From: Thermodesulfovibrionales bacterium
Lineage (GTDB): Bacteria > Nitrospirota > Thermodesulfovibrionia > Thermodesulfovibrionales > UBA1546
NCBI GenBank assembly: GCA_049302185.1
Contig: JBAQLV010000010.1
Coordinates: forward strand, 38,742-102,741
DNA length: 64,000 nt
Reading direction: 5' to 3'
The notes beneath the pieces are model-generated. The model was given only the letters and a program-made list of their open reading frames with translations. It did no database searches and was not told the DNA's origin. Every line of letters starts with the position of its first letter. Position 1 is the first letter of the stretch. The translations under genes were made by a program, and so were the position numbers. This document shows, one piece after another, positions 13,223 to 63,135 of the stretch.

Positions 13223-13252
13223 CTTTAACTCGATGAGGTTTGTGGAGGATTA

Positions 13253-19509: not shown

Positions 19510-19641
19510 GCAGACAGGACATAGTATTTGAGCGGTTTTTTTTGACGATATTCCATAGGAAGATTTATATAATGAGGCAAAAACCTCGGAGCCCCGATAT
19601 TATCGGGGCGAGAATGAGCGAAGATGCTATGTCCTGCCTGC
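19510..19641. repeat. MITE-like element (family B) with 14/15 terminal inverted repeats GCAGRCAGGACATAG
   Basis: TIRs at 19510-19524 and 19627-19641, with an internal GCCCCGAT-atta-TCGGGGC hairpin. It fills the patatin/hypE spacer. Confidence 0.75.
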
Positions 19642-19647
19642 CTCATC

Positions 19648-20661
19648 TCAGCATATCCTTGGAAGCTGTTCGCCTGAAAGCATATCTATAATGCGTGTTC
19701 CGCCGATTCTTGTTTTCAGCAAGACTTTACCTTCGGGCGATTCAGAGACTTCGCCGATAATATTAGCGTCTTTTCCCAAAGGGTTTTTCCTCAGTATCGC
19801 AAGCAGGCTTTCAGCTGCATCTTTCCTGACAACAGCTATTAAAATACCTTCATTTGCAATGTAAAGAGGGTCAATACCTAAAAGTTCAGATGCGCCTCTC
19901 ACTCCGTCCGGAACAGGGATTGACGCTTCTCGTATAGAAAAGCATAGGCCTGATTCCAGAGCCATTTCCTTGAGTGTCGTAGCCAGTCCTCCTCTTGTAG
20001 GGTCTCTCATTGCGTGCACGCCGCCGTATCCGATAATCTCCTCCACCATCTGATTCAGCGGCGCTGTGTCGCTCAGGACAGGAGGATTGAAGCTCAGCCC
20101 GTTTCTTTCAGCCATGACAGCAACTCCGTGGTTGCCGATTGTTCCGCTCACGATGATTTTATCCCCTGATTTTATATTTGCGAGTGAGATATTTACTCCG
20201 TCGTCAAGGATTCCGATGCCGGATGTATTTATGAATATTCCGTCTCCCTTTCCCCTATTGACAACCTTTGTGTCTCCTGTAATAATCTTTACCCCTGATC
20301 TTTTAGCGGCGTCTGCCATTGACGCGAGAATCTTTTTCAGGTCATTCATTAAAAATCCCTCTTCAAGTATTAATCCTGCGCTCATGCAAAGAGGTTTTGC
20401 GCCGACCATTGAGAGGTCATTCACCGTACCGTAAACCGCAAGTTCTCCGATATTTCCTCCCGGGAAAAAGATAGGCGAGACAACATATGAGTCAGTTGTA
20501 AAGGCAAGCCTAATAGGTGAATGGGACAAATCAACAATCGCAGAGTCTCCGAGGCTTTTCATCTCAAATTCAGGGACAAAATACTCCCTTATCAGCTTAT
20601 GCATTGCAGTCCCGCCGCTTCCGTGCGCAAGAAGGATTTTATCCACTGAATCCTCCCACAA
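19648..20661 (-). CDS. hypE: Hydrogenase maturation protein HypE
   Basis: 337 aa, PurM-like fold motifs, C-terminal PRIC. Confidence 0.95.
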   Translation of the reverse strand: MWEDSVDKILLAHGSGGTAMHKLIREYFVPEFEMKSLGDSAIVDLSHSPIRLAFTTDSYVVSPIFFPGGNIGELAVYGTVNDLSMVGAKPLCMSAGLILEEGFLMNDLKKILASMADAAKRSGVKIITGDTKVVNRGKGDGIFINTSGIGILDDGVNISLANIKSGDKIIVSGTIGNHGVAVMAERNGLSFNPPVLSDTAPLNQMVEEIIGYGGVHAMRDPTRGGLATTLKEMALESGLCFSIREASIPVPDGVRGASELLGIDPLYIANEGILIAVVRKDAAESLLAILRKNPLGKDANIIGEVSESPEGKVLLKTRIGGTRIIDMLSGEQLPRIC

Positions 20662-20667: not shown

Positions 20668-20775
20668 AAGTCAGCAGGATTGGCTTGAGCGGCATCAGTC
20701 CGCCTGAGGCGGATTCGGTAATCCCGAATGTCTTCGGGATCGAAAAATATCGTAGCAAGCGAAAGGCAGTCCTGC
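20668..20775. repeat. Diverged second copy of the family B MITE-like element
   Basis: It shares the left TTGAGCGG, right AGCGAA and GTCCTGC ends and internal CCGCCTGAGGCGG and ATCCCGAA-tgtc-TTCGGGAT hairpins. It fills the hypD/hypE spacer. Confidence 0.6.
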
Positions 20776-21864: not shown

Positions 21865-24276
21865 TTATTCTTTAGTCTGGGATGACTGTTTTATTCTTTC
21901 CCTCACTATGTATGCCTGCCCCAGCGATATGCCAGCATCATTTGCAGGAACCTTTTCATTAGTATAAACATTCATTCCTATTGATTTTAGCCTGTCTATA
22001 GTATTTTTTAGAAGATACATGTTCTGAAAAACTCCGCCACTTAAAACTACATCATGCAGCTTATGAACCATGCCGAGCCGCTGGACGACTCCGGCAATAA
22101 TTGTGACTATGGTGTTGTGAAACTTAGTGGCGATAATATCTTTTCCAATGCCTTTCGCCATATCCTGTATCAGCCTGAACAGAGTCAGGCAAAAGTCTAT
22201 TTCAATCCTGTCTTTCAATCCGATGTCAGCAGGGTAGTCTTCCTCTATGTTATCTATTGTATAAGATTCAAGCGCCATTGCTGCCTCGCCTTCAAAGGTG
22301 TTTGTGTCGCATATCCCGAGTATTGCCGAGACCGCATCAAAGAGCCTTCCTGCGCTTGATGAAAGGGGTGAGAAATCTCTGTTGTCAATGATTCTGAGAA
22401 TGCTGTTTATCTTATCACTGCCGTATTTTTCAATGAAGCCTATGGACTCCAGATAGTGCATGACCTCATCTCCCGTGATATATCTTATGTAGCTGACCGC
22501 AACTCTCCACGGCTCTCTGATTGCCGTCTCTCCTCCAGGAAGGGGGATGTATTTAAAGTGTCCTGCCCTCTTAAAGTCATCTATATCGGCAATCAGGAAT
22601 TCACTTCCCCATAGATTCCCGTCAGTTCCGTAGCCTGTGCCGTCAAATGCCACGCCTATGACTTTTCTCTTTATTCCGTTTTCTGCCATGACAGATGCAA
22701 TATGGGCATAATGATGCTGAATGCCATAAAAAGATAGTGACGAGTGACGAGTTTTTTGCTCCTGACTGCTAACTGCTGACTGCTGGGCCAGCGCCCATTT
22801 TGTTGAAAGATAATTGGGATGCAGGTCATATCCAATTGCAACAGGGTTCACCCTGTAAACTTTTTTTAGATTGCTGAGGCTTTCTTCAAAGAATTTTACA
22901 GTCTCGTAATTTTCCATATCTCCTATGTGATGGCTTGGAATAGCATAGCTTCCTTTTGTGAGGGTAAATGTGTTTTTTATATCAGCTCCGCAGCCGAGCA
23001 CTTCGGGACCATCATTGTCCAGAGATATGGGTTCAGGCGCATAGCCCCTTGAACGGCGGATAAAAATAGGTTTTGTCCTGTGAGCTAAAAAATGATTTCT
23101 TATAACAGAATCATCTACACGCATGAAGATGTCCCTGTTATGGATAAGGAGGGCATCAACCATATCGGAGAATTTTGATACTGCCTCGTCATTGCTGACA
23201 ACTATCGGCTCTTCCGAGATGTTGCCGCTGGTCATTACAAGGGATTTGAAATGGGGCATACCATTTACCCCCCCTTCGCCCCCCCTTACCAAGGGGGGGA
23301 TGGGGGGGTGGGGATAATAGAATAACAGATAATGCAGAGGCGTGTATGGGAGCATGAAGCCGATGTGCAGATTATTAGGGCTGATCGAATCAGGCAAGAG
23401 CGCTGAATTGTCTTGCGCAGTTTTTTTCCTGAGGAGCACAATCGGTCTCTTATTGGAGGTCAGGAGTTCTTGCTCTTTCTCCGATACCTCGCAGTATTTT
23501 TTAATTGTTTCTATGTCAGGAGCCATAAGCGCAAAAGGCTTGTTGTTCTTTCTTTTCCTTTCTCTTAATCTTTCAACCGCATCTTTGTTTGCGGCATCGC
23601 ATGCGATATGAAAACCGCCAAGCCCCTTTATTGCAATGATACAGCCGTCTCGTAGAAGTCTTATTGTTTCTTTTATCGGATTTTCTGCCTTATTAACTTT
23701 TAACTTTTCACTTTTAATTTTTAATTCAACATGCGGTCCGCATACCGCACATGCATTAGGCTGGGCATGGAATCTCCTGTCGGAAGTGTTGTTGTATTCG
23801 CTTTCGCATTCATTGCACATTTTAAAAACAGACATGGTGGTGTTGTGTCTATCATAAGGCACAGCATTTGTGATGGTGTATCGCGGCCCGCAGTTGATAC
23901 AGTTTATGAAAGGGTAGAGATAACGCCTGTTGTCTTTGTCAAGCATCTCTTTAAGGCAGTCATCGCATATTGAGACGTCAGAAGATATAAGCGTAAAACT
24001 TCCGCTGTCTCTGCTTTTTACTATCTCAAAATCTTTGTGCCCGTAAAGAGGCATAGGCGAAATATCAATCTTGTTTATCTCTGATAATGGAGGCGCTTCT
24101 TTTGGAAGCCTGCCTATAAATGACGTGATGTCTTCGCCTTCTATGTCAATTGCCACGCCGTCAGAGGTATTGGTCACTGTGCCTTTCAGGTTAAGGGATT
24201 TGGCAAGGTTATAGACAAAGGGCCTGAAGCCGACTCCCTGCACAACGCCTTTGATATTGATGAGGACACGGTTCAT
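21865..24276 (-). CDS. hypF: Carbamoyltransferase HypF
   Basis: 803 aa with an acylphosphatase-like N-domain, four CxxC zinc-finger motifs and YrdC-like and Kae1-like domains. It carries two repeat-derived in-frame insertions. Confidence 0.95.
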   Translation of the reverse strand: MNRVLINIKGVVQGVGFRPFVYNLAKSLNLKGTVTNTSDGVAIDIEGEDITSFIGRLPKEAPPLSEINKIDISPMPLYGHKDFEIVKSRDSGSFTLISSDVSICDDCLKEMLDKDNRRYLYPFINCINCGPRYTITNAVPYDRHNTTMSVFKMCNECESEYNNTSDRRFHAQPNACAVCGPHVELKIKSEKLKVNKAENPIKETIRLLRDGCIIAIKGLGGFHIACDAANKDAVERLRERKRKNNKPFALMAPDIETIKKYCEVSEKEQELLTSNKRPIVLLRKKTAQDNSALLPDSISPNNLHIGFMLPYTPLHYLLFYYPHPPIPPLVRGGEGGVNGMPHFKSLVMTSGNISEEPIVVSNDEAVSKFSDMVDALLIHNRDIFMRVDDSVIRNHFLAHRTKPIFIRRSRGYAPEPISLDNDGPEVLGCGADIKNTFTLTKGSYAIPSHHIGDMENYETVKFFEESLSNLKKVYRVNPVAIGYDLHPNYLSTKWALAQQSAVSSQEQKTRHSSLSFYGIQHHYAHIASVMAENGIKRKVIGVAFDGTGYGTDGNLWGSEFLIADIDDFKRAGHFKYIPLPGGETAIREPWRVAVSYIRYITGDEVMHYLESIGFIEKYGSDKINSILRIIDNRDFSPLSSSAGRLFDAVSAILGICDTNTFEGEAAMALESYTIDNIEEDYPADIGLKDRIEIDFCLTLFRLIQDMAKGIGKDIIATKFHNTIVTIIAGVVQRLGMVHKLHDVVLSGGVFQNMYLLKNTIDRLKSIGMNVYTNEKVPANDAGISLGQAYIVRERIKQSSQTKE
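22736..22786. repeat. Heptamer arrays inside hypF (AGTGACG x2; CTRACTG x3)
   Basis: Read directly. They encode the AVSSQEQKTRHSSLS stretch, which looks like an insertion relative to HypF as I know it. Confidence 0.8.
23268..23313. repeat. GC-rich palindromic mini-element, in frame in hypF
   Basis: cccccccttcgccccccttaccaagggggggatgggggggtgggg. It is the near-exact reverse complement of 45716-45759 and encodes PHPPIPPLVRGGEGG. Confidence 0.9.
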
Positions 24277-28772: not shown

Positions 28773-29918
28773 TCATAACATCGTATACCGATTTTTAATG
28801 GTGAATCCTCTTAATGCAGGTTTGCGGCTGCCTTTGTACTGTATTATGACCTTGTGCGTTTCTCCCATTGTACCCGGAAGAATTAATTTTTTGATTCTGG
28901 CAACTTCAAACGGATAATCAGCAGAATTTTTATGGATTTCAGCGATAACCTCATCAATACCGAGGGAAACGAGAAATACGCCCTGACGGCAGAAGCCTAT
29001 AGTTTTTATGCCGAGTTCATAACCCCATTTTTTTACTGATGAGAAATTGACATGCGCTGTGATATCCTGCTCTCCTGTATTTTGGTAAGGGTCTTCTGTT
29101 ACTTGATGCTCATGATAGCAAAGGAGTGTCCCTCTGTTTCTGTCTTCACTGTAATAGTCTTCGGAAGAATAGCCGTAGTCAATAGTTAATAAAAATCCCT
29201 CTGTTAAAGCGCGGTTTATTTCAGAAAGCCATTTTTTGATTTCAAGATTTATCTCTGTCCTATGTCCTTTCTCAAGTTCTATGGAAAACTCGTTGATGTA
29301 ATCTATTATCACGCTTGTGCTTGGCGCTCCTTTGATTTCTGTTAATTTCTCATTTTCTGCGGAAACGAATATTTCCTTGATTTCATCCTTCATCTCTATA
29401 ATATGTACAGGGAAGGCATCAAGAAGCTCGTTTGAGAGAATGCAGCCTCTTATAGCGCTGAGTTCTTTAATGGATGAGACCCATCGAACTTTGTCCGAGA
29501 ACTCAGACAAAAGATTTTTCTGGTTCTCTCTCATTAAGGGATTAAGTTCAACGATTATGTATTGCAGGTTTTTTATTATTTCTCTTTCTAACCCCTGACC
29601 CCCAATCCCTAAACCCTTGTAGTATTCAAGAATATCTTTACAGAGATAACCTACGCCTGAGCCCATTTCAACGATTTGAAAATCAGAAGGCCTGCCCATT
29701 ATCTCCCACATCTCTTCTATCTGTTTTCCAATCATCATTCCGAATGCAGGATGGAGATGAGAGCTTGTGTAGAAATCGCCGCTTCTTCCAATCCTTGTTT
29801 TTTGAGAGGTGTAATAGCCGAGTTCAGGTTCGTAGAGAGCCATCTCCATGAAGGCTCTGAATGTGATATGTCCTTCTTTTTTTATCTTGCCTATGATTTT
29901 TTGCTGAAGAGGATTCAT
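28773..29918 (-). CDS. SAM-dependent methyltransferase, MidA/NDUFAF7-like
   Basis: 381 aa with YYTS...GDFYTS and EMGSGVGYL motifs. It contains a heptamer-derived insert. Confidence 0.8.
   Translation of the reverse strand: MNPLQQKIIGKIKKEGHITFRAFMEMALYEPELGYYTSQKTRIGRSGDFYTSSHLHPAFGMMIGKQIEEMWEIMGRPSDFQIVEMGSGVGYLCKDILEYYKGLGIGGQGLEREIIKNLQYIIVELNPLMRENQKNLLSEFSDKVRWVSSIKELSAIRGCILSNELLDAFPVHIIEMKDEIKEIFVSAENEKLTEIKGAPSTSVIIDYINEFSIELEKGHRTEINLEIKKWLSEINRALTEGFLLTIDYGYSSEDYYSEDRNRGTLLCYHEHQVTEDPYQNTGEQDITAHVNFSSVKKWGYELGIKTIGFCRQGVFLVSLGIDEVIAEIHKNSADYPFEVARIKKLILPGTMGETHKVIIQYKGSRKPALRGFTIKNRYTML
29589..29616. repeat. Heptamer array TAACCCC TGACCCC CAATCCC TAAACCC inside the MidA-like gene
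   Basis: Read directly. It encodes GLGIGGQGL on the coding strand. Confidence 0.8.
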
Positions 29919-31676: not shown

Positions 31677-31984
31677 ATATCCTTATTGCCTCTCCAAACA
31701 ATTTAGTTAATGTCGTGGCTGTTTATTGATCTTTATCAGTTTTTTCGTTATTATTCTCGGTGCCGTTATTTTCTTTAATGCCGTGACCTGCCGTAATTTC
31801 ATTTATATTACATGAATCCCTTGATATATCTGAGAACATCATATGGCACTGGAAAAGCAACGCCGTCTTGAGTTGCCTGCTTAACTATATCGTGCCAGCT
31901 TCCGCCAAAAGTCTTCGCAACGCGCTCTGTCACCTTCACACTATTCGCAATCTCAACTACAACTAGGGGAATAATTAGGGGAAT

Positions 31985-32743
31985 AATTAGGGACACATCC
32001 CATAATTTTCTTTTACTTTTTTTTCTTCCTCGGTCTTCCGGGAGATTTCAGTATAAATCTCCTTTCAAGCTTCTTTTCCATTTTCTTTATGAACTCTTCG
32101 CTGCCCAACGGTCTCCCCGTTCTCGTATGATACCTTATACCGTTTATCTCTTTCTCCGCAATACCTGATTTAATAAGTTTTCTGTAGTCCTTCCTCTGCC
32201 TTGCTTCAAACAATTCCTCTTCCAATATCTCATTCACTATGCCATTTATGTGAGCATTTGCACTTGAATATGTAAAGTCCTCTGCCTTTTTCACTATCCG
32301 TGCTCTTACAGGGTTCTGTTCAATGTATCTTGCCACAGCCCACAAATACTTATCCTTATCTACTATGCAGGAATGATATCTGCTTTCCCATAATCTGCCT
32401 GTCCGTTGGTATTTTCTATTTATATGCTGCGTGTAACACAGCGTTACTCCCTGCATCATCTTATATAAGGATTCTTCACTTTTTGGCCGTGTCAATAGGT
32501 GGATATGGTTGCTCATAAGACAATAGGCAAGGATTGGTGAATCCCATTTGTCTGAATATTTCTTAAGTAATTCCAAATATTTCTTTCTGTCTTCACCTTT
32601 AAAAAAGACCTTTTCTCTGTTATTGCCTCTCTGGACTACATGATGGAAAAAACCCGTTGCAACTGCTCTCGCTATTCTTGGCATGAGAAGATTTTAGATT
32701 ATAGCTGCTCTTTTGTCAAATAATAGGGGATGTGTCCCTAATT
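31985..32743 (-). mobile_element. RAYT/IS200-like unit: Y1 transposase gene bracketed by perfect 17-bp inverted repeats
   Basis: AATTAGGGACACATCCC at 31985-32001 and its exact reverse complement at 32727-32743. Subterminal 12-bp direct repeats lie on both outer flanks. Confidence 0.75.
32013..32684 (-). CDS. REP-associated tyrosine transposase (Y1 / IS200-like family)
   Basis: 223 aa with HHVVQRGNNRE, CLMSNHIHLL (HUH motif) and a conserved Tyr region YIEQNPVRA. Confidence 0.8.
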   Translation of the reverse strand: MPRIARAVATGFFHHVVQRGNNREKVFFKGEDRKKYLELLKKYSDKWDSPILAYCLMSNHIHLLTRPKSEESLYKMMQGVTLCYTQHINRKYQRTGRLWESRYHSCIVDKDKYLWAVARYIEQNPVRARIVKKAEDFTYSSANAHINGIVNEILEEELFEARQRKDYRKLIKSGIAEKEINGIRYHTRTGRPLGSEEFIKKMEKKLERRFILKSPGRPRKKKK

Positions 32744-32972
32744 TTCCAATTTTCCACCTCCCTAATTTTCCATAATTTTCCATTGTCCTAAAATTGTCCC
32801 TAAAATTGTCCCTAAAGCCGGATACAAGCCCAATGACATATGCATTTAGTCCAGCAGTCTCTGATGCAACGGGCTTCGATATATCTGTGATTTGTTTTTT
32901 ACTGTTTTCATCTGCATAGGAAAATATTGTGGTAGAAGACAATAAGAATATAACTGCTATAAAAAGTTTCAT
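32694..32972 (-). CDS. Hypothetical small secreted protein whose 3' half runs into the RAYT flanking repeats
   Basis: Signal-like MKLFIAVIFLLSSTTIFSYA. The C-terminal FRDNFRDNFRTMENYGKLGRWKIGKLG is a translation of the 12-bp repeats. Possibly disrupted. Confidence 0.3.
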   Translation of the reverse strand: MKLFIAVIFLLSSTTIFSYADENSKKQITDISKPVASETAGLNAYVIGLVSGFRDNFRDNFRTMENYGKLGRWKIGKLGTHPLLFDKRAAII

Positions 32973-40983: not shown

Positions 40984-41739
40984 ATGTTCCGAGATATAAA
41001 AGATTCAGAAATATTTACAAGATTGGCGGATTTTTTTGGGAAAAAGTCTGAAGTTTTGCTTGTTTTTCTCTTTGGATCCGCAGCAAGCAGGAAAATGACA
41101 GAATATCTCACAAAGGTAATGGGCTATCCAGAGGAGAATGTTGTAACACTTTTGAATGAACATGCGACAAATGTAGATTTTGCAAAATACTTTGAGAAGT
41201 GGCTTCCTAACAACGTTGAAAAAGATAGAAACCTTTACAAAGTTAAACTTAAAGCTCTTGTTGAACCTGTTTATCCTGAAAAAAGCGAAACTATCTCACT
41301 TAAAGTCTCCCTCTCAAAGACTGTTTTAAAGGAAGGCGATGAGGTTAAGGTTTTTTTTCAGACAAACAGGGACTCTTATGTGTATATCTTTTCGGTAGCA
41401 GCAGACGGCTCTGTGACACTCCTGTTGCCCAACTCCATAAATAAGGACAATCTTATTCTTGCTGGGAGAGCATACACTTTCCCTACTCCTGAAAGCCGGA
41501 TAAGGTTGACGGCAATGTTCCTTCCTGAGTTTAAAGGGAAGATTGCAGAAGAAAAGATAAAGATTATAACCACAAAGAAAAAAGAGGATTTAGTGCCTCT
41601 CGGTTTTCAGGAAGGGATGTTCAAGGTCTATGATGCAAAGTCCACAGGCATGATAAGCGACCTAATCAAAAGACTCAATCAGCTTGAGCCTGCTGACTGG
41701 GCAGAGGCAACGACAGTTTATAGGATTGAGAGAAGATGA
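40984..41739 (+). CDS. DUF4384-like domain protein with a degenerate mosaic N-terminus
   Basis: The C-terminal YVYIFSVAADGSVTLLLPNS...AGRAYTFP resembles DUF4384. The N-terminus carries a nucleotidyltransferase-like LVFLFGSAASR and a caspase-like segment without catalytic His/Cys. Confidence 0.5.
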   Translation: MFRDIKDSEIFTRLADFFGKKSEVLLVFLFGSAASRKMTEYLTKVMGYPEENVVTLLNEHATNVDFAKYFEKWLPNNVEKDRNLYKVKLKALVEPVYPEKSETISLKVSLSKTVLKEGDEVKVFFQTNRDSYVYIFSVAADGSVTLLLPNSINKDNLILAGRAYTFPTPESRIRLTAMFLPEFKGKIAEEKIKIITTKKKEDLVPLGFQEGMFKVYDAKSTGMISDLIKRLNQLEPADWAEATTVYRIERR

Positions 41740-43343
41740 AAGTTGTTACAGCGGAAGAGATGAGAGAGATTGACAGGATGACCATAAGGGATTATGAAAT
41801 AGCCGGTAGTGTGCTCATGGAGAGGGCAGGGCTTGCCGTTGCAGGAAAAATAAGGGAACTTTTTGAGCGGCGGAGAAAGGTTATAGTTCTTTCGGGTGGA
41901 GGCAATAATGGCGGAGACGGCATTGTTGTTGTAAGAAATCTTCATGAATGGGGCTGGAATGTAAAAATCATTCTTCTTTCAAAGGAAAACAAGCTAAGCC
42001 CGGACTGTCTGTTGCAATATAAGATAGCGAAAAAATCAGGCGTGCCGGTTGAGTTTCGGGATTATATCACAGAAAAAGACCTTCATAGCGCTTTGGTTGT
42101 AGATGCAATTTTCGGCACCGGTTTAAGCAAAAATATCACAGGAAAGACGGCCGAGATTATATCGTTTATCAATGCCTCGGATGCTCCTGTAATTTCTGTT
42201 GACATTCCCTCAGGCATTTCATCAGATACAGGGCAGATTATGGGAGAGGCGGTCAGGGCGGATTATACCATAGCGTTCGGTATTCCCAAGAGAGGTCATC
42301 TGCTTTACCCGGGCGCTGATTATACCGGAAGGCTTTTTATTGAAGATATCGGCTTTCCTGAAGAACTGCTTCACTCGGAAAAGCTTAAAGCAGAGCTTCT
42401 TGAAAAAAGAGACATATTTTTATTGATTCCCGAAAGGCAGAGGTATTCGCATAAAGGCGATTATGGCCATGTGCTTGTTATTGCAGGCTCAAGAGGGAAA
42501 ACAGGCGCTGCATTCATGTGTGCAAAGGCATGTCTAAGGTCAGGCGCAGGGCTTGTGACAATAGGAGTTCCGGAATCACTGCTGGATGTTTTTCAGTCAA
42601 GGGTTACAGAAGAGATGACCCTGCCTTTGCCTGACAAAGGAGACGGGACGCTTTCATCAAAGGCATTGGAAAAGATTCTGGAATTTCTTTCTGAAAAGGC
42701 TGATGTGCTTGCAATTGGTCCGGGAATTTCCGTTACCGATGATACTAAGAAGCTTGTCAGAGAACTTTTACTGAATTCAACAGCGTCGGCTGTTATTGAT
42801 GCTGATGCTATAAATTCGCTTCAGGGCAATAAGCAGATACTCAAAAAAGCGAGGTCGCCGCTGATTCTTACGCCTCATCCAGGAGAGATGGCGAGACTCT
42901 TACAGAAGTCACCCCCCCCACCCATCCCTCCCCCTCGAGGGGGGAGGGTGAGGGAGGGGGTGAAAGCTCTAACTTCTGAACTCCAAACCAAAATAGAGCA
43001 GGACAGGATTAATACTGCCATGTTTTTTGCAAAAGAGACAGGGACATATCTTGTTCTTAAAGGCGTGCCGACAGTTATTGCTGAACCGGAAGGCAGAGTG
43101 TTCATCAATCCGACAGGCAATTCCGGTATGGCGAGCGCCGGAACAGGGGATGTCCTGACAGGAATGGTTTCAGGGTTTTTAGGGCAGGGGTTAAACCCGC
43201 TTGAGGCGTCAATTCTTGGAGTTTATATGCATGGACTTGCCGGAGACATAGCTGCGAAAAGCAAGGGAGAACATTCGCTGATTGCATCCGATATTACAGA
43301 TGCGATTCCGGAGGCGTTTCATCTATTGAGGATTATTTCATAA
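41736..43343 (+). CDS. nnr: Bifunctional NAD(P)H-hydrate repair enzyme (epimerase/dehydratase)
   Basis: 535 aa with a YjeF_N domain (GGGNNGGDG) and a carbohydrate-kinase-like C domain (GTGDVLTG). It carries an in-frame GC-palindrome insertion. Confidence 0.92.
   Translation: MKVVTAEEMREIDRMTIRDYEIAGSVLMERAGLAVAGKIRELFERRRKVIVLSGGGNNGGDGIVVVRNLHEWGWNVKIILLSKENKLSPDCLLQYKIAKKSGVPVEFRDYITEKDLHSALVVDAIFGTGLSKNITGKTAEIISFINASDAPVISVDIPSGISSDTGQIMGEAVRADYTIAFGIPKRGHLLYPGADYTGRLFIEDIGFPEELLHSEKLKAELLEKRDIFLLIPERQRYSHKGDYGHVLVIAGSRGKTGAAFMCAKACLRSGAGLVTIGVPESLLDVFQSRVTEEMTLPLPDKGDGTLSSKALEKILEFLSEKADVLAIGPGISVTDDTKKLVRELLLNSTASAVIDADAINSLQGNKQILKKARSPLILTPHPGEMARLLQKSPPPPIPPPRGGRVREGVKALTSELQTKIEQDRINTAMFFAKETGTYLVLKGVPTVIAEPEGRVFINPTGNSGMASAGTGDVLTGMVSGFLGQGLNPLEASILGVYMHGLAGDIAAKSKGEHSLIASDITDAIPEAFHLLRIIS
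42910..42962. repeat. GC-rich palindromic mini-element, in frame in nnr
   Basis: cacccccccacccatccctccccctcgaggggggagggtgagggagggggtg, centred on CTCGAG. It encodes SPPPPIPPPRGGRVREG. Confidence 0.9.
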
Positions 43344-43353
43344 GCTATGTTTA

Positions 43354-43551
43354 AGCAGACAGGACATAGCATCTTCGCTTTCGCCTCAGGCGAATTCGCC
43401 GAGGAGGACAAAAATTTATTTACTAAGACGGCTACAAGTAAGGATACATTCTTGTCATTCTCCTCCTCCGGCTTGACCGGGGGATTGACCGGAGAATCCA
43501 GAAAGGCGCTGGATGCCCGATTAAGAACTTCGGGCATGACGTCAAAAATAA
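43354..43551. repeat. Composite of a family B terminus and hairpin plus family A hairpin units
   Basis: 43354-43377 matches the reverse complement of 19618-19641 at 23/24. 43373-43412 matches 13185-13222. 43447-43551 starts like 46347. Confidence 0.8.
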
Positions 43552-45600: not shown

Positions 45601-46323
45601 ATGACAAATATTGCAGAAGACATAAAGACAGTGCTTGAGTTTTATCAGGCGATGGGGATTGAGAGAATACCCTTAAACATAGCGCTGAAGAGCAGAAGCG
45701 CAGAAGTGCAGAAGCCACCCCCCCATCCCCCCCTTGGTAAGGGGGGGCGAAGGGGGGGTGATTATTCGGAAAAGGTTATTGCTTTAAAAAAATTGCGCGA
45801 TGAGATTGGTGATTGTCAGAGGTGCAAACTCTCAAAGGGGAGAAAGAACATTGTATTCGGGGAAGGCAGCATAGATGCGGAAATAATGTTCATTGGCGAA
45901 GGGCCCGGCGAAGACGAGGACATTCAGGGGCGGCCTTTTGTGGGCAAGGCAGGACAGCTGCTTACAAAACTGATAGAGAAGATGGGATTTAAGAGGGAGG
46001 ATGTCTATATCGGCAATATCGTGAAGTGCCGGCCTCCCGGTAACAGGGACCCTGAGGAAGACGAGATTAACGCCTGTTCTCCGTTCATAAAAAAACAGGC
46101 GGCGATAATCTCTCCGAAGGTTATAGTTTCGCTTGGCCGCATATCTACGCAGACGCTCATCGGCATGAAGATTCCGATAGGCAAGCTGAGGGGCAAATTC
46201 TATCAGTTTGAAGATATTCCGCTGATGCCGACATTTCATCCGTCTTATCTCCTGAGAAACCCCAAAGACAAATGGCTTGTATGGGAAGATGCGCAAAAGG
46301 TTCTTGAAAGGCTGGGAAAGTAG
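45601..46323 (+). CDS. Uracil-DNA glycosylase, family 4
   Basis: 240 aa with CQRC..., GEGPGEDED and HPSYLLRN. It carries an in-frame GC palindrome in the N-terminal extension. Confidence 0.9.
   Translation: MTNIAEDIKTVLEFYQAMGIERIPLNIALKSRSAEVQKPPPHPPLGKGGRRGGDYSEKVIALKKLRDEIGDCQRCKLSKGRKNIVFGEGSIDAEIMFIGEGPGEDEDIQGRPFVGKAGQLLTKLIEKMGFKREDVYIGNIVKCRPPGNRDPEEDEINACSPFIKKQAAIISPKVIVSLGRISTQTLIGMKIPIGKLRGKFYQFEDIPLMPTFHPSYLLRNPKDKWLVWEDAQKVLERLGK
45716..45759. repeat. GC-rich palindromic mini-element, in frame in the UDG gene
   Basis: cacccccccatcccccccttggtaagggggggcgaagggggggtg. It encodes PPPHPPLGKGGRRGG. Confidence 0.9.
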
Positions 46324-49999: not shown

Positions 50000-50004
50000 G
50001 GATT

Positions 50005-50033
50005 GTTCACAGTTCACGGTTCACAGTTCACGG
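50005..50033. repeat. Heptamer array GTTCACR x4
   Basis: gttcaca gttcacg gttcaca gttcacg, between the antitoxin stop and the four-helix-bundle start. Confidence 0.9.
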
Positions 50034-50071
50034 ATTGGGGACAGGGTTTTTTGCTGTCAACAGGAGGTAGC

Positions 50072-50265
50072 ATGGGTTTTAATTTTGAAAAACTGGATGT
50101 TTACAAAGAAGCACTATATTTTGCAAATGAGATCTATCAGATCACTAAACGGTACCCAAAAGATGAGATATTTGGGATAACGAATCAAATAAGAAGGTCG
50201 TCTACGTCTATAGCTCAAAATATTGCAGAGGGCAGTGGTCGAACAAAGAAAGAGTTTCCTCCTGA
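50072..50265 (+). pseudogene. Four-helix-bundle protein (23S rRNA intervening-sequence protein / Avd-like family), 3'-truncated
   Basis: MGFNFEKLDVYKEALYFANEIYQITKRYPKDEIFGITNQIRRSSTSIAQNIAEGSGR is a typical family N-terminus. It breaks off after about 65 residues and reads straight into kinase sequence. Confidence 0.7.
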
Positions 50266-51520
50266 AAGAAGAAATGAGGCATGTGTGAAATGCCACGCTG
50301 CCGTGCGCGGCAACCTTAAGGATGTAGATATCTTTGTGAAATCACTTGAAAAGGATCATGAGAAGGACATAAAAGATTTTGATGCCTTCAGATTTTATGT
50401 GCTTGGATTTTTCTTTATTGGAGCGGTTTTTATTGTGTTTTATATAAGGCAGAGCATTGTTATGCCTGTAGGAAGGCTTAAGGATGCAGCAAAAGAGATT
50501 GAAAAAGGAGATTTTTATGTCAGGGTTGATGTAAAAACGAGCGATGATATCGGGACACTCAGTAAGACATTCAATGAAACGGCTAAGTCTCTTGATTTTC
50601 TTTTTAAAGAGGATATGGAACTTCTGCAGGAACTTGAAGAAAAAGTAAAGGAGAGGACGAAGGAGCTTGAGGGTGCAAACCTTGAGCTTCAAACCTTCAA
50701 CAGAGAGATTCAGCTAAGGAGGGTTGAGGCTGAGGAGGCAAGGCTTTAGGCAGAGGCTGCAAGCAGGGCAAAATCAGAATTCCTTGCAAATATGTCGCAT
50801 GAATTAAGGACACCGTTGAATTCAGTCATAGGCTTTTCAGAGGTTTTGACTGAAGGACTGGCAGGCGATATCACAGACAAGCAGAAAGAATATATTCAGG
50901 ATATATGGGGAAGCGGGAAACATCTTTTGCGGCTTATAAATGATATGCTTGACCTCTCAAAGATAGAGGCGGGCATGATGGAGCTTGACCTCAGTGAAGT
51001 TGACATTAAAGAGCTTATTGAGGGAACTATGCTGATGTTTAAGGAGAAGGCAATAAAACACAAAATTAAATTTACTTCTAACATCCCTGATGATATAGGG
51101 TCTGTGACTGCTGATGCTGTGAAGATAAAACGGGTGCTCCTGAATCTCCTCGGCAATGCCTTCAAGTTTACGGATGACGGTGGAGCCGTCTCTGTGCGGG
51201 CGCGGAGGATACATGATACAAGATACATGATGCAGGATAAAGATATCATGTATCGTGAATCAGGCATCGTGCATCCCGACGGAAATTTCGATAAAATTTC
51301 CGTCGCTGACACAGGCATCGGCATTTCCCCTGAAGACCAGAAGAGACTCTTTCAGCCGTTCCAGCAGCTTGAATCTACGCTTACAAAGAAATATGAAGGC
51401 ACAGGACTTGGACTCAGCATCAGCAAAAGGATTGTTGAATTTCACGGCGGCAGGATTTGGGCTGAGAGCGAGGAAGGAAAGGGAAGCAGGTTTATATTTG
51501 TAATACCGGTGAGGAAATGA
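50266..51520 (+). pseudogene. Sensor histidine kinase, 5'-truncated and interrupted by an in-frame TAG
   Basis: CVKCH heme-c motif, one TM, HAMP and a coiled coil. TAG at 50747-50749 is followed in the same frame by [22 protein letters not shown] (H-box) and HATPase_c. Confidence 0.75.
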
Positions 51521-51928: not shown

Positions 51929-53077
51929 ATAGGCATTATCCTTCTTAATCTCGGCGGGCCTGATTCTATTCAGGCTGTAAAGCCGTTTCTTTACAATTTA
52001 TTTTCAGACAGAAAGATAATTCAACTTGGCCCTCCATTCCTTCAAAAACCGATTGCACGGCTAATCTCAACACTGAGGTCTAAAAAAACAGAAAGTTGTT
52101 ACCGCCTCATAGGAGGCAGGTCTCCGATACTTGATATTACCAATGCACAGGCAAAGGCGCTGGAAGAAACGCTAAATCAGTTCAGCGTTCAGGGTTCAGC
52201 GTCAGAAAACTCCGAACTCCTAACTCCTAACTCCGAGAAATCCCCCCATCCCCCCTTTGTTAAAGGGGGGCGAGGGGGGATTAAAGTTTTCGTAGGAATG
52301 CGTTACTGGCATCCTTTGATAGAAGACGTGATACCTCAGATTTATAATGATGGAATTAGAAAACTTATCGCCATCAGCCTTTATCCCCAGTATTCTCTGG
52401 CAACATCAGGCTCAGCGCTTGTTAAATTTAAAGAAGCTGTAATAAATACTTATCAGCCGGATAAAACAGAGGTTGAAAAAATGAATAGTTCTTTTGAGTA
52501 TCATGGCAAGCCTTCTTTTACTGTTCACTATTCACTATTCACTATTCACTGTATTTTATCATGGTATGACCATCCGCTTTATATTAAGGCATTGGTGGAT
52601 GTGATAAAGAAGGGGATTGAATCTTTTAACTCCAAACTCCAAACTCCAAACTCTGAACTTAATATCCACGTTCTCTTCAGCGCCCACAGCCTTCCTGAAA
52701 AGTTTATTGATGAGGGTGACCCTTATGTGCGTCATATTGAGAGAACGATTGAAGAGATTGTAAAGCGGATACCAATAAAATGGCATCTGAGTTATCAATC
52801 CAAGAGCGGGCCTGTAAAATGGCTTGGGCCTTCAACAGACGAAAAACTTAAAGAACTTGCAGGCAGGAATGTTAAGAATATTCTCATTGTCCCGATAAGT
52901 TTTGTATCTGACCATATTGAGACGCTTTATGAGATTGATATATTATATATGCAGATGGCAAAAGACCTCGGAATTAATCTGAGACGAACAGATTCCCTGA
53001 ACACACATCCGCTTTTTATTGAAGCGCTGAAAGATATAGTAATAAAAAACATGAAGGAGCTTGGTTGGACAGAATAG
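51929..53077 (+). CDS. hemH: Ferrochelatase (start codon unresolved)
   Basis: The conserved N-terminus GIILLNLGGPDS...FLYNLFSD...IGGRSP is in frame from at least 51932. There is no ATG/GTG/TTG in frame after the stop at 51866-51868. The track start at 52298 would delete about 120 conserved residues. SAHSLPE and DHIETLYE motifs are present. Confidence 0.85.
   Translation: MGIILLNLGGPDSIQAVKPFLYNLFSDRKIIQLGPPFLQKPIARLISTLRSKKTESCYRLIGGRSPILDITNAQAKALEETLNQFSVQGSASENSELLTPNSEKSPHPPFVKGGRGGIKVFVGMRYWHPLIEDVIPQIYNDGIRKLIAISLYPQYSLATSGSALVKFKEAVINTYQPDKTEVEKMNSSFEYHGKPSFTVHYSLFTIHCILSWYDHPLYIKALVDVIKKGIESFNSKLQTPNSELNIHVLFSAHSLPEKFIDEGDPYVRHIERTIEEIVKRIPIKWHLSYQSKSGPVKWLGPSTDEKLKELAGRNVKNILIVPISFVSDHIETLYEIDILYMQMAKDLGINLRRTDSLNTHPLFIEALKDIVIKNMKELGWTE
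52178..52282. repeat. Composite in-frame insertion in hemH: GTTCAG-type heptamers, inverted AACTCCN heptamers, then a GC-rich palindrome (52241-52281)
   Basis: Read directly. It encodes SVQGSASENSELLTPNSEKSPHPPFVKGGRGG just upstream of the conserved VGMRYWHP. Confidence 0.9.
52521..52555. repeat. Heptamer array CTGTTCA CTATTCA x3 CTGTATT inside hemH
   Basis: It encodes FTVHYSLFTIHCI. The same CTATTCA unit appears at 38686-38699. Confidence 0.9.
52628..52660. repeat. Heptamer array AACTCCA x3 AACTCTG AACTT inside hemH
   Basis: It encodes NSKLQTPNSEL just before the conserved LFSAHSLPE. Confidence 0.9.
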
Positions 53078-54688: not shown

Positions 54689-54730
54689 ACCTGAATTGAG
54701 CGATTCTATACTCTGTAATTCTGTCTTGTC

Positions 54731-54806
54731 TGTCATTCCGACTTGTTCGGAATCCTTCCTGCTTGTCAGGAATCGTCAGAAAGATGCTGGACAAGCCAGC
54801 ATGACA
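54731..54806. repeat. Family A hairpin mosaic, inverted relative to 4684-4765
   Basis: tgtcattccgacttgttcggaatc + cttcctgcttgtcaggaatc + gatgctggacaagccagcatgaca, the same three modules as the 4.7-kb copy. Confidence 0.85.
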
Positions 54807-54865
54807 AAAAAGGGTGAGGGGTATTTTCGGGTCAATGACAGGAATAAGAAAGGGGTTTTGTTTTC

Positions 54866-56960: not shown

Positions 56961-58071
56961 TTAGGCGATGGGCAGAGCACCATTTTTTGTTCTCTTGATC
57001 TTCAATCCCACGTCTTTTTTCCGTCGTAGCTAAGAATGTTGAAGATGTAAACTCGCTTTATTCTAAGTTTCCTTTACCTATATTACAGTTTGAACAAAGA
57101 GTTTTAAGATTTTCAAAAGTAGTTTCACCATCTTTTGACCAGGGTATTATATGATCAACATGTAATATTATTTTAGGGTCAGTCGCCGGAGATCTGCCAC
57201 AGTATCGGCACTTAAAATTATCTCTTCTCATTACCTTAAATCTAAGTCTATCATTGACTTCCCTTTTAGTTTGATGTGTATTCATTAGTTTTTGTGATGA
57301 TTTTGGTCTCTTGGCTGATGGTGTTTTATCTGCAAACCCAGAAACTAATTCTTCATTGGGATATTCTATAATTGTTGCTTGAGGTAATATGCCCTCTTTA
57401 ATAATTATAGAATTTTCACCCTCAATTGTTGTTTCTTCTTCTTTATTGACATACTCAATAAATCGCTCAAGTGATTTCCGCCAAGTACCAAAATTATGCA
57501 CATAACCACTTCCTGAATATTTAGAAAACGGTATTCGCATATCAGAAAAATGTGGTTGCCTACCGAGTTTTATCCAAACTTCTTCTAAATTTTTAAAATA
57601 CTCCTCATCCGATATACTTGGATGTTCTCTTCTTTTTAAACCGGTTTTTTCTTTTGCTTTTATCCAAGAACCAAATCTATACTCAAGTGTTGAACTATGA
57701 AATTTCCCATGCCGGTTATATTCATCTCTAGTAATTGAATCATTTTTTAACTTAAAAGAAACCCGTTGTAAGTCTGCAATTAATTCTGCATCTTTTATAA
57801 TATTTTTTGTTCTACTTTTTCCGCTTTTTAAACCTGCTTTCGCCAAAGCGTTAGACCAAGAGCCAAATCTGTTATAAAATATGGTAACTCCAAATTTACC
57901 ATGCTTTTTATATTCCCGTTGGGTTAATGAATCTGTTTTTAACTCGGAAGCGACATGTTTTAAGTCCGCAATTAATTCTTTATCTGCAATATGTCTGTTA
58001 AATTTATCTAACTCAAATTTAATCATATTTACTCAACTCTTTTTTATTTTGGTGCTCTGCCTTTCGCCTAA
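56961..58071 (-). mobile_element. HNH endonuclease cassette bounded by 22-bp imperfect inverted repeats
   Basis: TTAGGCGATGGGCAGAGCACCA (56961-56982) matches the reverse complement of 58050-58071 at 20/22. The interior is AT-rich. Confidence 0.35.
57058..58026 (-). CDS. HNH endonuclease with three N-terminal homing-endonuclease-associated repeats
   Basis: 322 aa with three copies of LIADL..V...L..DS(L/I)T..EY..HGKF......RFGSW..A. The C-terminus reads CRYCG...HVDHIIPWSKDG...NLKTLCSNCN. Confidence 0.85.
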   Translation of the reverse strand: MIKFELDKFNRHIADKELIADLKHVASELKTDSLTQREYKKHGKFGVTIFYNRFGSWSNALAKAGLKSGKSRTKNIIKDAELIADLQRVSFKLKNDSITRDEYNRHGKFHSSTLEYRFGSWIKAKEKTGLKRREHPSISDEEYFKNLEEVWIKLGRQPHFSDMRIPFSKYSGSGYVHNFGTWRKSLERFIEYVNKEEETTIEGENSIIIKEGILPQATIIEYPNEELVSGFADKTPSAKRPKSSQKLMNTHQTKREVNDRLRFKVMRRDNFKCRYCGRSPATDPKIILHVDHIIPWSKDGETTFENLKTLCSNCNIGKGNLE

Positions 58072-58435: not shown

Positions 58436-58540
58436 TTAGTAGATAATATATTCCCCAAATCCTTTATTGTCAATTGAAAATCTCCCTCTGTTTCTACCAA
58501 TTTAGAAATGTCCGGTTTTATGTTATTGCTCAATGCGGTT

Positions 58541-58631
58541 GTCATTCCCGCGTGTCGGGAATCTTTCTTTCCCGCACTCAGGCGTGTTCGCTGTGGCAAC
58601 AAAGAAAGATGCTGGACAAGCCAGCATGACA
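58541..58631. repeat. Family A hairpin units
   Basis: gtcattcccgcgtgtcgggaatc ... gatgctggacaagccagcatgaca, upstream of ilvB. Confidence 0.8.
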
Positions 58632-58737
58632 GACAGGGGAGGGGTAAGATATAAATAAAAACATCAGGTTAATGCAAGAATTTATGGACATTTTCATAAT
58701 CTTTTGTGGTAAAATTATTTAAATTTTAAAAGGAGCT

Positions 58738-61680: not shown

Positions 61681-61712
61681 TAATTTATAAAAGTGAAGGG
61701 AGGGTGAAAAAA

Positions 61713-62108
61713 ATGAAAATCCGGTTTATGAAACAGATTTCGTGGTATCTTGTCTTTGCAATGTTTATCATCGGGATTGCGCCTAAGGCTGATGCGGGCA
61801 TTGCGCCGTCAGAAATCATTGTCATGTCACAGGTTGACAGGACGGCTGACCTTGGAAAAATCCAGAAGGTTCTTGAGATGAAGATGGTCAGGGAAAGGCT
61901 TGAAAAACTGGGATACGCACAGGAAGAGATTAACAGCAGGCTTGCCCATCTCAGTGACCAGCAGATGCACAATCTGGCGCTCCAGATAGATGGGATTAAG
62001 GTTGGAGGCGATAGTGGTCTCGGTATAGTGATAGCTCTTCTTGTGATAGCCATACTTTTTGTGCTGTTGCTTTGGCTTATGGATCACAAAGTAGTAGTGA
62101 CAAAATAA
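61713..62108 (+). CDS. Small signal-peptide, tail-anchored protein with a juxtamembrane Gly-Gly (paralog 1)
   Basis: I place the start at ATG 61713 (MKIRFMKQISW, homologous to the paralog-2 start, with good RBS spacing). Features are APKADA|G, KVGGD, a hydrophobic helix and HKVVVTK. Confidence 0.7.
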   Translation: MKIRFMKQISWYLVFAMFIIGIAPKADAGIAPSEIIVMSQVDRTADLGKIQKVLEMKMVRERLEKLGYAQEEINSRLAHLSDQQMHNLALQIDGIKVGGDSGLGIVIALLVIAILFVLLLWLMDHKVVVTK

Positions 62109-62129
62109 AATTAAAGGAGGTGAATTAAA

Positions 62130-62519
62130 ATGAGGATACCTTTAATGAAACATTTGTCGTGGTACTTGATAGTTGCAATGTTCATCATCGGGATTGCACC
62201 GAAGGCTGATGCGGGCATTGCGCCGTCTGAAATCATTGTCATGTCACAGGTTGACAGGACGGCTGACCTTGGAAAAATCCAGAAGGTTCTTGAAATGAAA
62301 ATGGTCAGAGAGAGGCTGGAGAAGTTAGGATTTGCTCAGGATGAAATACAGGGCAAGTTAGGCAGTCTCAGTGACCAGCAGATGCACAATCTGGCGCTCC
62401 AGATAGACGATATGAAGGTTGGAGGCGATCTCGGTATAGTGATAGCTCTTCTTGTGATAGCCATACTTGTTGTGCTGTTTATACAGCTTACAGGTCACAG
62501 AGTAGTAGTAACGAAATAG
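62130..62519 (+). CDS. Small signal-peptide, tail-anchored protein with a juxtamembrane Gly-Gly (paralog 2)
   Basis: 129 aa with RBS AAAGGAGGTG and the same architecture as paralog 1. Confidence 0.7.
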   Translation: MRIPLMKHLSWYLIVAMFIIGIAPKADAGIAPSEIIVMSQVDRTADLGKIQKVLEMKMVRERLEKLGFAQDEIQGKLGSLSDQQMHNLALQIDDMKVGGDLGIVIALLVIAILVVLFIQLTGHRVVVTK

Positions 62520-62520
62520 A

Positions 62521-63135
62521 ATGAGGCTAAAATTTCAGTCTGTAAACCCCGTTAGAAAATGGATTTCTAACGGGATAAATAAGCAGGCATGGATTATCTC
62601 CATGCCTGCTTATTTATTTCTTGCTCTTCTCACATTTTTCTTGCATTCATGCGCTGTTGTCAGCAATGGCAATATTCCTGAATCAAGACAAAACAGGATT
62701 GTCAGCAATGTTCCTTTCTACGCTCAAGAGGATTATCAGTGCGGGCCTGCATCTCTTGCAGGCGTTATGAATTACTGGAAGATAGATGTTACGCCTGATG
62801 ATATTGCAAAAGAAATATACAGCAAATCTGCGAAAGGCACCCTGAATATTGATATGGTAATTTATCCTCAGAAGAAGGGATTAACTGCAGAACAATATTC
62901 AGGGAATATGAGAGACCTGAAAAAAAATATAGATTCAGGTTATCCGCTTATTGTGCTTGTTGATTATGGTTTCTGGGCATTGCAGTCAAATCATTTCATG
63001 GTTGTTGTCGGGTATAATGAGGATGGAGTGATTGTAAATTCGGGAAAGGATAAGGGCAAGTTCATATCTGAAGAGGATTTTATAAAGACATGGGAAAAGA
63101 CAAAGTTCTGGACGCTGGTAATAAAAAGAAAGTGA
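62521..63135 (+). CDS. C39-like papain-fold cysteine peptidase, probable lipoprotein
   Basis: Catalytic-type QCGPASL and NHFMVVVGY, lipobox FLHSC. The start is ambiguous (62521, coupled to the upstream stop, or 62602). Confidence 0.72.
   Translation: MRLKFQSVNPVRKWISNGINKQAWIISMPAYLFLALLTFFLHSCAVVSNGNIPESRQNRIVSNVPFYAQEDYQCGPASLAGVMNYWKIDVTPDDIAKEIYSKSAKGTLNIDMVIYPQKKGLTAEQYSGNMRDLKKNIDSGYPLIVLVDYGFWALQSNHFMVVVGYNEDGVIVNSGKDKGKFISEEDFIKTWEKTKFWTLVIKRK
62548..62615 (+). promoter_or_regulatory. Two consecutive strong hairpins at the small-protein/peptidase junction
   Basis: An 11-bp stem at 62548-62574 (a copy of the 16530 hairpin). A 16-bp perfect stem at 62577-62592 / 62600-62615, followed by a T-rich tract. 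The internal ATG at 62602 lies in the 3' arm. Confidence 0.6.

Follow-up and report, generated by a model that had tools for sequence, protein, structure and literature searches.

A GC-rich palindrome in the nnr gene of a Thermodesulfovibrionales bacterium is probably one copy of a dispersed repeat family that inhabits reading frames

The nnr gene of a Thermodesulfovibrionales bacterium (assembly GCA_049302185.1) lies in a 64,000-nucleotide stretch of contig JBAQLV010000010.1 (positions 38,742 to 102,741 of the forward strand; here called the window) and carries within its reading frame a GC-rich palindrome with guanine quadruplex (G4) motifs on both strands. The locus raises the question of whether this palindrome is a structural device belonging to nnr or a sequence that has come to reside there. 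We favor the second answer, with a probability of about 0.8: the nnr element belongs to a family of imperfect, GC-rich palindromes of ~45 to 51 nt that has reached high copy number in Thermodesulfovibrionales/Nitrospirota genomes of ~43% GC, and the family is selfish, non-autonomous, and survives inside genes. The same sharply bordered element is present in many unrelated genes, and its copies are polymorphic between close relatives. The features of the locus, in window coordinates, are as follows.

41736 to 43343, + strand: nnr, bifunctional NAD(P)H-hydrate epimerase/dehydratase, 535 aa, intact (YjeF_N, 1e-50; Carb_kinase, 4.5e-56; TM0922, 2.9e-112)
42912 to 42962, + strand: nnr-type GC palindrome, 51 nt, 17 codons, Nnr residues 393 to 409, PPPPIPPPRGGRVREGV
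42912 to 42934, − strand: C-rich left arm with the canonical G4 motif GGGGGAGGGATGGGTGGGGGGGG (G4Hunter −2.84; regular-expression match)
42939 to 42960, + strand: G-rich right arm with the canonical G4 motif GGGGGGAGGGTGAGGGAGGGGG (G4Hunter +2.56)

The palindrome begins at a codon boundary of the nnr open reading frame (ORF). Positions 42910 to 42962 read CA CCCCCCCC A CCC AT CCC T CCCCC TCGA GGGGGG A GGG TGA GGG A GGGGG TG, centered on TCGA and imperfect, with one extra G, an internal loop of AT versus TGA, and an A-A mismatch. A canonical G4 motif was defined as four G-tracts of at least 3 nt with loops of 1 to 7 nt on one strand (G3+N1-7). By this definition, both strands of the 42910 to 42962 segment carry G4 motifs, as the original prediction had claimed from the sequence, and the G4Hunter scores listed above are the maxima for the plus and minus strands. 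The G-tract layout that it gave for the right arm was also correct, but the loops on the plus strand measure 1/3/1 nt (A, TGA, A) rather than 1 to 2 nt, and the left arm has a C8 run rather than C7; the minus-strand loops are 1/2/1. Read on the plus strand, the left arm is i-motif-capable. In shuffled sequence, 0.00 occurrences of the palindrome core with up to 3 mismatches are expected. The window contains 8 canonical G4 motifs compared with 0.38 ± 0.52 in Markov-1 simulations, and 6 of the 8 are within palindrome copies; it also contains 3 C-motif/G-motif pairs, compared with 0 in the simulations. The two G4 motifs outside the palindromes are a telomere-like (CTAACCC)n heptamer array at 29588 to 29617 and GGGGCAGGGATTTGGGATGGG at 11473 to 11493, in or near the start of a transketolase gene.

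These properties could be taken to mean that a functional structure has been selected in nnr, acting as a hairpin/G4/i-motif switch on translation, mRNA stability, or replication. The high-scoring G4 motifs on both strands would suit such a switch, as would the very stable hairpin, whose folding energy is −45.0 kcal/mol (z = −3.8) for the RNA and −21.6 kcal/mol (z = −3.1) for the DNA. The encoded PPPP-I-PPP peptide should moreover require EF-P and is likely a ribosome-stalling motif. However, the choice between hairpin and G4 that had been proposed for the mRNA and for each DNA strand is one-sided for the mRNA. The G arm alone folded as an RNA G4 at −22.8 kcal/mol, ~22 kcal/mol short of the hairpin, and the RNA minimum-energy fold was unchanged once G4s were permitted; in the folding model, therefore, the hairpin outcompetes the G4 in mRNA. 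Because the two arms are 4 nt apart, the duplex or hairpin would compete directly with the G4. With DNA parameters a G4-containing fold was competitive (−27.3 versus −21.6 kcal/mol for the hairpin), although the ViennaRNA G4 energies behind this comparison are uncalibrated for DNA. There is no U-run after the hairpin, which also counts against a regulatory device, and a reading of the hairpin as an intrinsic terminator was dropped for this reason. An Rfam scan of the window returned two tRNAs only and left the palindromes unmatched.

The position of the element within the protein was examined by comparison with characterized and homologous Nnr sequences. The translation LLQKSPPPPIPPPRGGRVREGVKAL and its placement in the Carb_kinase (dehydratase) domain of this YjeF_N plus Carb_kinase protein had been given correctly in the original prediction, and the proposal that the segment is an insertion in the linker of that domain was borne out. 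Window residues 392 and 428 pair with chain residues 389 and 400 of Thermotoga maritima TM0922 (2AX3), and residues 388 and 419 pair with 159 and 166 of Bacillus subtilis YxkO (3RPH), so that the window Nnr has ~25 extra residues at the linker. We aligned 120 homologues (P-numbers below), all from Thermodesulfovibrionales/Nitrospirota metagenome-assembled genomes (MAGs) and 63 to 89% identical. The stretch after GEMARLL is hypervariable among them (10 to 55 aa), and the alignment shows an inserted rather than an ancestral segment, which close orthologues can lack. The nnr-type peptide is present at the linker in ~31 of the 121 Nnr sequences, plainly decayed in some (P0077, P0083, and P0107 look old). 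Another ~18 homologues have other palindrome subfamilies there, for example NPPLPPFTKGGRGGIT, PHPPLGKGGxGGNY, and PQIPPLVRGGYGGV, which are the same types as the copies in hemH, a uracil-DNA glycosylase (UDG) gene, and hypF described below. Many homologues have heptamer-derived linker peptides such as SEVRSQKSEV, and in a few (P0037, P0081, P0087, and P0098) the linker is nearly empty. At metagenome locus L016, whose Nnr is 88% identical, the linker DNA holds a (GGTRTCA)n array and the palindrome is absent. In an AlphaFold model of Nnr built on a 55-sequence alignment (pLDDT 87.4, pTM 0.87), residues 390 to 411 form a coil with pLDDT 41 to 55 between helices 382 to 389 and 412 to 422; the insert therefore appears to occupy a permissive loop. 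Thus, the nnr copy sits in frame in a hypervariable loop of the dehydratase domain that the model presents as structurally permissive.

Two further observations concern the Nnr insertion site and the palindrome itself. The Nnr orthologue of locus L015 (L015:2081-3709) has, ~90 nt 5' of the palindrome site, an extra in-frame (GGCAATA)n heptamer expansion that the other loci do not have. Nested insertions split the palindrome, at the TCGA center or in the G-arm, in the Nnr homologues P0005 and P0113 and at loci L050 and L116.

The identity of the palindrome was then set against the divergence of its host gene, measured as nucleotide identity of nnr to the window outside the element.

L015: nnr 65.9% identical; palindrome 50/51; extended block 98/103
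L014: nnr 75.9% identical; palindrome 49/51
L013 (closest relative): nnr 94.0% identical; palindrome 45/51

All of the extra palindrome changes in L013 are in the C-arm, where the tract pattern is broken. The identity of the palindrome does not follow the divergence of its host gene, a pattern that neutral vertical descent would not produce. This decoupling indicates that some lineages repeatedly acquired or homogenized the palindrome while it decayed in other lineages. It also bears on the suggestion that the segment is an ancestral, protein-level Pro/Gly linker of the Nnr of this clade, with the DNA palindrome incidental. The recurrence of the peptide PPPIPPPRGGRVREGV in homologues 63 to 89% identical and the old-looking, decayed versions noted above agree with an ancestral linker. 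However, the palindrome has kept 50/51 and 49/51 identities, synonymous positions included, in genes that are only 66% and 76% identical; other genes contain the identical DNA, with different frames and the opposite strand being read; unrelated sequence occupies the site in close relatives; and the T. maritima and B. subtilis enzymes are without the segment. An ancestral linker is already largely refuted by these data, and we consider it the least probable of the explanations weighed here.

Repeat finding gave four palindrome copies in the window, each of which keeps the frame of a long ORF that has a full Pfam match. In addition to the nnr copy, the four include the following.

23267 to 23311, − strand: palindrome in hypF, C7-AT-C7 TTGGTAA G7-CGAA-G7, in frame as HPPIPPLVRGGEGGV
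45715 to 45759, + strand: 45-nt palindrome in the family-4 UDG gene, in frame as PPPHPPLGKGGRRGG
52239 to 52282, + strand: palindrome AATCCCCCCATCCCCCCTTTGTTAAAGGGGGGCGAGGGGGGATT in hemH (ferrochelatase), in frame as SPHPPFVKGGRGGI, with heptamer arrays upstream

The nnr sequence had been recognized beforehand as belonging to a family, and the four copies agree with this; what had been missed is that every one of them is an insert of a dispersed repeat that keeps the frame and is translated. The hypF copy matches the UDG copy over 45/45 nt, although the two are read in different frames and have unrelated flanks. The UDG palindrome is found in the window only; in the UDG genes of L013, L014, and L016, its place is taken by arrays of the AGAGCAGA type and another linker. 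Conversely, a 45-nt palindrome in pgeF (AATCCCCCCTTGCCCCCCTTTAGTAAAGGGGGGTTGGGGGGATTT) is found only in L013, where it replaces 18 nt (INRGEA) of the window and of L016.

To describe the family beyond the window, we collected exact matches to the 26-nt core of the nnr copy, ATCCCTCCCCCTCGAGGGGGGAGGGT, in metagenomes (loci numbered L). The core was present in at least 120 metagenome stretches. Among the matches listed, to which all counts of copies in this and the next paragraph refer, there were 80 to 83 non-redundant contexts after redundant flanks were removed, and their flanks were unrelated. Conservation across 80 non-redundant copies was near total over ~50 nt and fell to background at both borders. 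The family consensus is GCCCCCCCACCCATCCCTCCCCCTCGAGGGGGGAGGGTAAGGGAGGGGGTG, or, with its variable positions, (G/T)CCCCCCCACCC(T)ATCCCTCCCCCTCGAGGGGGGAGGGT(W)(R)GGGAGGGGGTG(A). On low-GC contigs (GC <0.47), 46 of the 52 non-redundant copies were in open frames 450 nt long or longer. Ten hosts were confirmed by Pfam, namely class II ribonucleotide reductase (RNR), LeuRS, TrpE (anthranilate synthase), MurD, RecJ, PurL, FolC, AcrB, CobA-HemD, and PrmC. The 51-nt consensus has no stop codon in five of the six frames, because C-tracts, whatever the frame, encode Pro/Ser/Thr/His and G-tracts encode Gly/Arg/Glu. Frame usage among the 46 copies was nevertheless uneven.

PPTHPSPSRGEGKGGG: 26 copies
TPSLTLPPRGGGMGGG, opposite strand: 14 copies
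APPPIPPPRGGRVREGV, the nnr frame: 5 copies
One more opposite-strand frame: 1 copy

Several related arrangements were seen in the same material. One PurL (FGAM synthase) gene, L110:4774-9042 on the minus strand, has five in-frame palindromic inserts of at least three subfamilies, and a TPR membrane protein in L136 has several. Twenty-nine nnr-type copies are nested in an ORF-less composite repeat of ~150 nt, in which the palindrome is preceded by TACTACTAACGTGCAAATTCTCAAAATTTTATTAAGCAAT and followed by GATTTCTTTTGGTTGCGGCTATGCCGCGCTGTG (L018, L024, L026, L038, L049, L092, and about 23 other loci); the contigs concerned are of ~0.5 GC and therefore probably belong to a different host lineage. 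This context was rejected as a parent insertion sequence (IS), being a composite repeat with no ORF. A scan of MAGs for C6-AT-C6...G6 palindromes, a pattern one loop base longer than the window subtypes, returned 12 related elements in Nitrospinota, Nitrospiria, Deltaproteobacteria, and Nevskiales, a taxonomic range that is to be taken as a sketch. Viral contigs contained no exact match to either palindrome subtype.

These distributions also speak against a role of the structure that is specific to nnr. That the element is kept at its site in ~31 of 121 Nnr sequences would favor a selected device. However, the same element occupies at least 46 other open frames of unrelated function. It is absent from L016 despite an 88%-identical Nnr, with other repeat types at the site elsewhere, and its left arm has decayed in L013, with loss of the tract pattern, in a gene that is 94% identical. 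We therefore regard a regulatory structure selected in nnr as very improbable, although somewhat less so than an ancestral linker. An effect of the element on translation or replication of nnr in particular is improbable on the same grounds, and the description of its host as essential was too strong for Nnr, which is a metabolite-repair enzyme. We infer instead that the G4/i-motif potential is family-wide and derives from the tract architecture common to all intact copies.

The flanks of the nnr palindrome consist of heptamer repeats.

42903 to 42911, + strand: left flank CAGAAGTCA, remnant of a (CAGAAGT)n array, SEVRSQKSEV in orthologues, inverted relative to the ACTTCTG of the right flank
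42963 to 42990, + strand: right flank AAAGCTCTAACTTCTGAACTCCAAACC, degenerate (GAACTCN)n array of repeat family D6, encoding KALTSELQT

Peptides resembling KALTSELQT also occur in Nnr orthologues without the palindrome. When arrays were tested period by period, period-7 arrays adjoined 15 of 83 copies on the left and 11 of 83 on the right among the matches listed, compared with 1 of 622 control windows; periods 5, 6, 8, and 9 showed no enrichment at the palindrome flanks. A stricter tandem-array threshold under-called arrays. Left and right arrays are often mutually inverted, as in nnr (CAGAAGT on the left, ACTTCTG on the right); the inverted-flank test gave a weak excess only (mean 0.43 versus 0.39). 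Heptamer arrays are unusually abundant in the window itself, which contains 16 of period 7 in its 64 kb; several of these lie in ORFs (hypF and hemH) and are translated.

22736, 22762, 23693, 29588, 33686, 38685, 45566, 46594: first eight window arrays
50005, 51208, 52180, 52208, 52520, 52628, 63130, 63173: last eight window arrays

The hemH gene alone has four heptamer arrays plus its palindrome. The heptamer arrays of the window resemble the short tandemly repeated repetitive (STRR) sequences of cyanobacteria.

The abundance of arrays makes it conceivable that the family spread without transposition, through recombination or gene conversion between heptamer arrays or through template switching at the hairpin, with the palindrome as a passenger. 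The strong period-7 enrichment on both flanks, often in inverted orientation, fits such a route, as do the heptamer arrays that relatives hold at the same Nnr site and the right flank GAAAGCTC(GAACTCN)n, which recurs in different host genes. The replacement of 18 nt in pgeF and the flank co-conserved with L015 (98/103) point the same way. So does the lack of target-site duplication: direct repeats at the borders were no commoner than in controls, and the pgeF pair was likewise without one. Against this, ~70 to 80% of the copies have no detectable adjoining heptamer array, the borders of the element are sharp whatever the flank, and the hypF and UDG copies share 45 identical nucleotides with no similarity in their flanks. 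We therefore consider spread by array recombination or template switching unlikely, but far more plausible than either of the explanations tied to Nnr itself.

Some of these observations, and several others, weigh against our reading of the family as a selfish mobile element. No transposition event or donor-recipient pair was observed, and mobility is read from the distribution of copies. The near-identity of the L015 copy reaches 40 nt into the flank, which could reflect transfer of a gene segment rather than an independent insertion. In the sole clean pair, pgeF in L013, 18 nt were replaced instead of a simple insertion being made, a result that recombination or repair would explain no less well than transposition. 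Many Nnr orthologues have the element at the same site, decayed in some, and part of the nnr distribution is therefore vertical. The borders of the nnr palindrome are certain to 1 to 2 nt only, because there is no clean empty/filled pair for an nnr-type copy, and selection by the exact 26-nt core biases the metagenome sample toward young copies. The palindrome has no GTAG/CGTC tag, its consensus beginning with (G/T)CCCCCCC and ending with GGGGGTG(A). Finally, the window encodes a candidate trans-acting mobilizer of hairpin repeats, but one whose flanks carry a different repeat.

32016 to 32684, − strand: Y1 (IS200-type) tyrosine transposase resembling those associated with repetitive extragenic palindromic sequences (RAYT-like), 223 aa (PF01797, 1.8e-19)

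This gene is closest to NCBIfam REP_Tyr_transpos, with 74.3 bits, below the 80-bit cut-off, and it is bracketed by inverted exact copies of GGGACACATCCC (31964 to 32001 and 32727 to 32816) and not by the GC palindrome. Because the flanking repeats differ, the gene was not adopted as the mobilizer; it is a lead and was not taken as evidence. Its flanks also contain tandem arrays of 10 to 24 nt, and the GC content here (0.35) is the lowest in the window. Classification of the palindrome as a miniature inverted-repeat transposable element was likewise rejected, as no target-site duplication and no parent IS was found.

Among known systems, the Rickettsia palindromic elements (RPEs) appear closest in kind to the Nitrospirota family. 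Ogata et al. are said to have described them in 2000 as dispersed palindromes in frame in unrelated housekeeping genes and translated at permissive surface positions, reportedly ~100 to 150 bp long, polymorphic between relatives, and confined to an obligate intracellular alphaproteobacterium. To our knowledge, no encoded transposase is known for RPEs. The window family likewise occurs in frame in many unrelated genes, with a permissive-loop position shown for nnr alone, and its copies are present or absent between relatives. However, RPEs are not made of C/G homopolymer tracts and have no G4 motifs, whereas the Nitrospirota element is 45 to 51 nt long, GC-rich in a 43% GC genome, linked to heptamer arrays, and found in a free-living host; we do not claim membership by sequence. 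A second comparison is with the small dispersed repeats (SDRs) of cyanobacteria, which Elhai et al. reportedly described in 2008 as mostly intergenic hairpin repeats of 21 to 27 nt with nested insertions, accompanied by STRR heptanucleotide arrays; we know of no mobilizer for them. The Nitrospirota palindromes are similarly nested in or beside heptamer arrays and have nested insertions of their own (P0005, P0113, L050, and L116), but SDRs are not built of C/G tracts and belong to a different phylum.

In size, hairpin form, and lack of target-site duplication, the family also resembles the REP and REPIN sequences, which are high-copy, GC-rich imperfect palindromes of 20 to 40 nt, extragenic by definition and tagged with GTAG/CGTC (PMC3116915, PMC3733652). 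Their proposed mode of movement is as hairpins of single-stranded DNA handled by a Y1 transposase, and they leave no target-site duplications (PMC3116915, PMC3733652). A RAYT-like gene is present in the window as well, but it is flanked by the different repeat GGGACACATCCC. Further differences are that ~88% of the sampled Nitrospirota copies (46 of 52 among the matches listed) and 4 of 4 window copies are within genes, and that the Nitrospirota palindrome lacks the GTAG/CGTC head and occurs as single copies instead of REPIN doublets. Mobile GC clusters in yeast mitochondrial DNA (PMC8811140) and coding palindromes in the mitochondrial DNA of Nematomorpha (PMC6649704) are also GC-rich palindromes spread in a lower-GC genome, some in frame with both arms translated; they differ in sequence and size and in residing in organelle genomes. 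A quadruplex-forming heptamer repeat enriched in Xanthomonas and Nostoc (PMC4692102) shares repeated G-tracts with canonical G4 potential. However, those repeats are tandem simple sequences, whereas the Nitrospirota element is a dispersed palindrome with a complementary C-arm 4 nt away.

Taken as a selfish element, the family suggests the following mechanism. The C-tract/G-tract design, together with selection against disruptive insertions, would keep copies in ORFs as Pro/Gly-rich surface loops, and tandem heptamer arrays would serve as preferred landing or recombination sites. By analogy with REP/REPIN, copies might spread as extruded single-stranded hairpins handled by a trans-acting HUH/Y1 transposase, a route that would leave no target-site duplication and that we put forward tentatively, giving it a slight preference over array recombination or template switching. 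Within a host gene, the hairpin and the PPPP-I-PPP peptide could each slow ribosomes locally, and slippage would be plausible at the C8 and G6 runs. In its boldest form, the proposal is that free-living bacteria contain a novel class of mobile DNA compatible with translation, with a stop-free architecture adapted to ORFs, homing to heptamer arrays, mobilized by Y1/HUH enzymes as single-stranded hairpins or G4/i-motif structures, and seeding loops as it goes; this is a speculative possibility, and we would not yet bet on it. If it were true, the palindromes would, as a side effect, keep adding surface loops, sites of polyproline stalling, and C7-8/G6-7 homopolymers prone to slippage to the housekeeping proteins of Nitrospirota, and possibly to those of Nitrospinota and Deltaproteobacteria.

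The window is rich in other repeats and unusual genes. A second palindromic family, TGTCATTCCGACTTGTTCGGAATGACA / GATGCTGGACAAGCCAGCATGACA, is clustered at 4673 to 4772, 54722 to 54819, and 58539 to 58644 and is seemingly intergenic and REP-like. Hairpin repeats of GAATCCGCCGAGGCGGAC occur just 3' of genes at 13195 to 13227, 20695 to 20738, and 43390 to 43422, as does a 40-nt inverted pair at 19617 to 19656 and 43340 to 43379, and these small repeats include some directly after the nnr stop codon. The same TCCGCCTCAGGCGGA hairpin is nested in a heptamer array at locus L053. At 57061 to 58026 on the minus strand, an HNH endonuclease gene with three 'homing endonuclease associated' repeats stands alone between housekeeping genes. 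A sensor histidine kinase at 50003 to 51517 on the plus strand is split into two ORFs, where L013 has a single 543-aa gene; the first of the two ORFs has a fused '23S rRNA-intervening sequence protein' domain and starts with a (GTTCACA)n array. At 61690 to 62522, a unit of ~415 bp is duplicated in tandem (83 to 86% identity), giving the paralogous small ORFs 61704 to 62108 and 62130 to 62519.

The practical message for nnr is that its G4 motif should not be read as a regulatory feature of the gene. In-frame palindromic repeats have classically been a curiosity of Rickettsia and organelles, and what looks like the same phenomenon is seen here in free-living, environmentally abundant Nitrospirota. 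We found no description of such elements in Nitrospirota in the literature searched, which is not proof of absence. A ~50-nt element with about nine of every ten sampled copies in genes would amount to a natural experiment on how proteins tolerate or recruit random loops, and its low-complexity PPxPP..GGxGG peptides are a plausible source of annotation and alignment artifacts in MAGs. Its dozens of matched contexts may also serve for studying hairpin/G4 competition, EF-P-dependent stalling, and homopolymer slippage, and the family would be a tractable system in which to study the movement of very small repeats.

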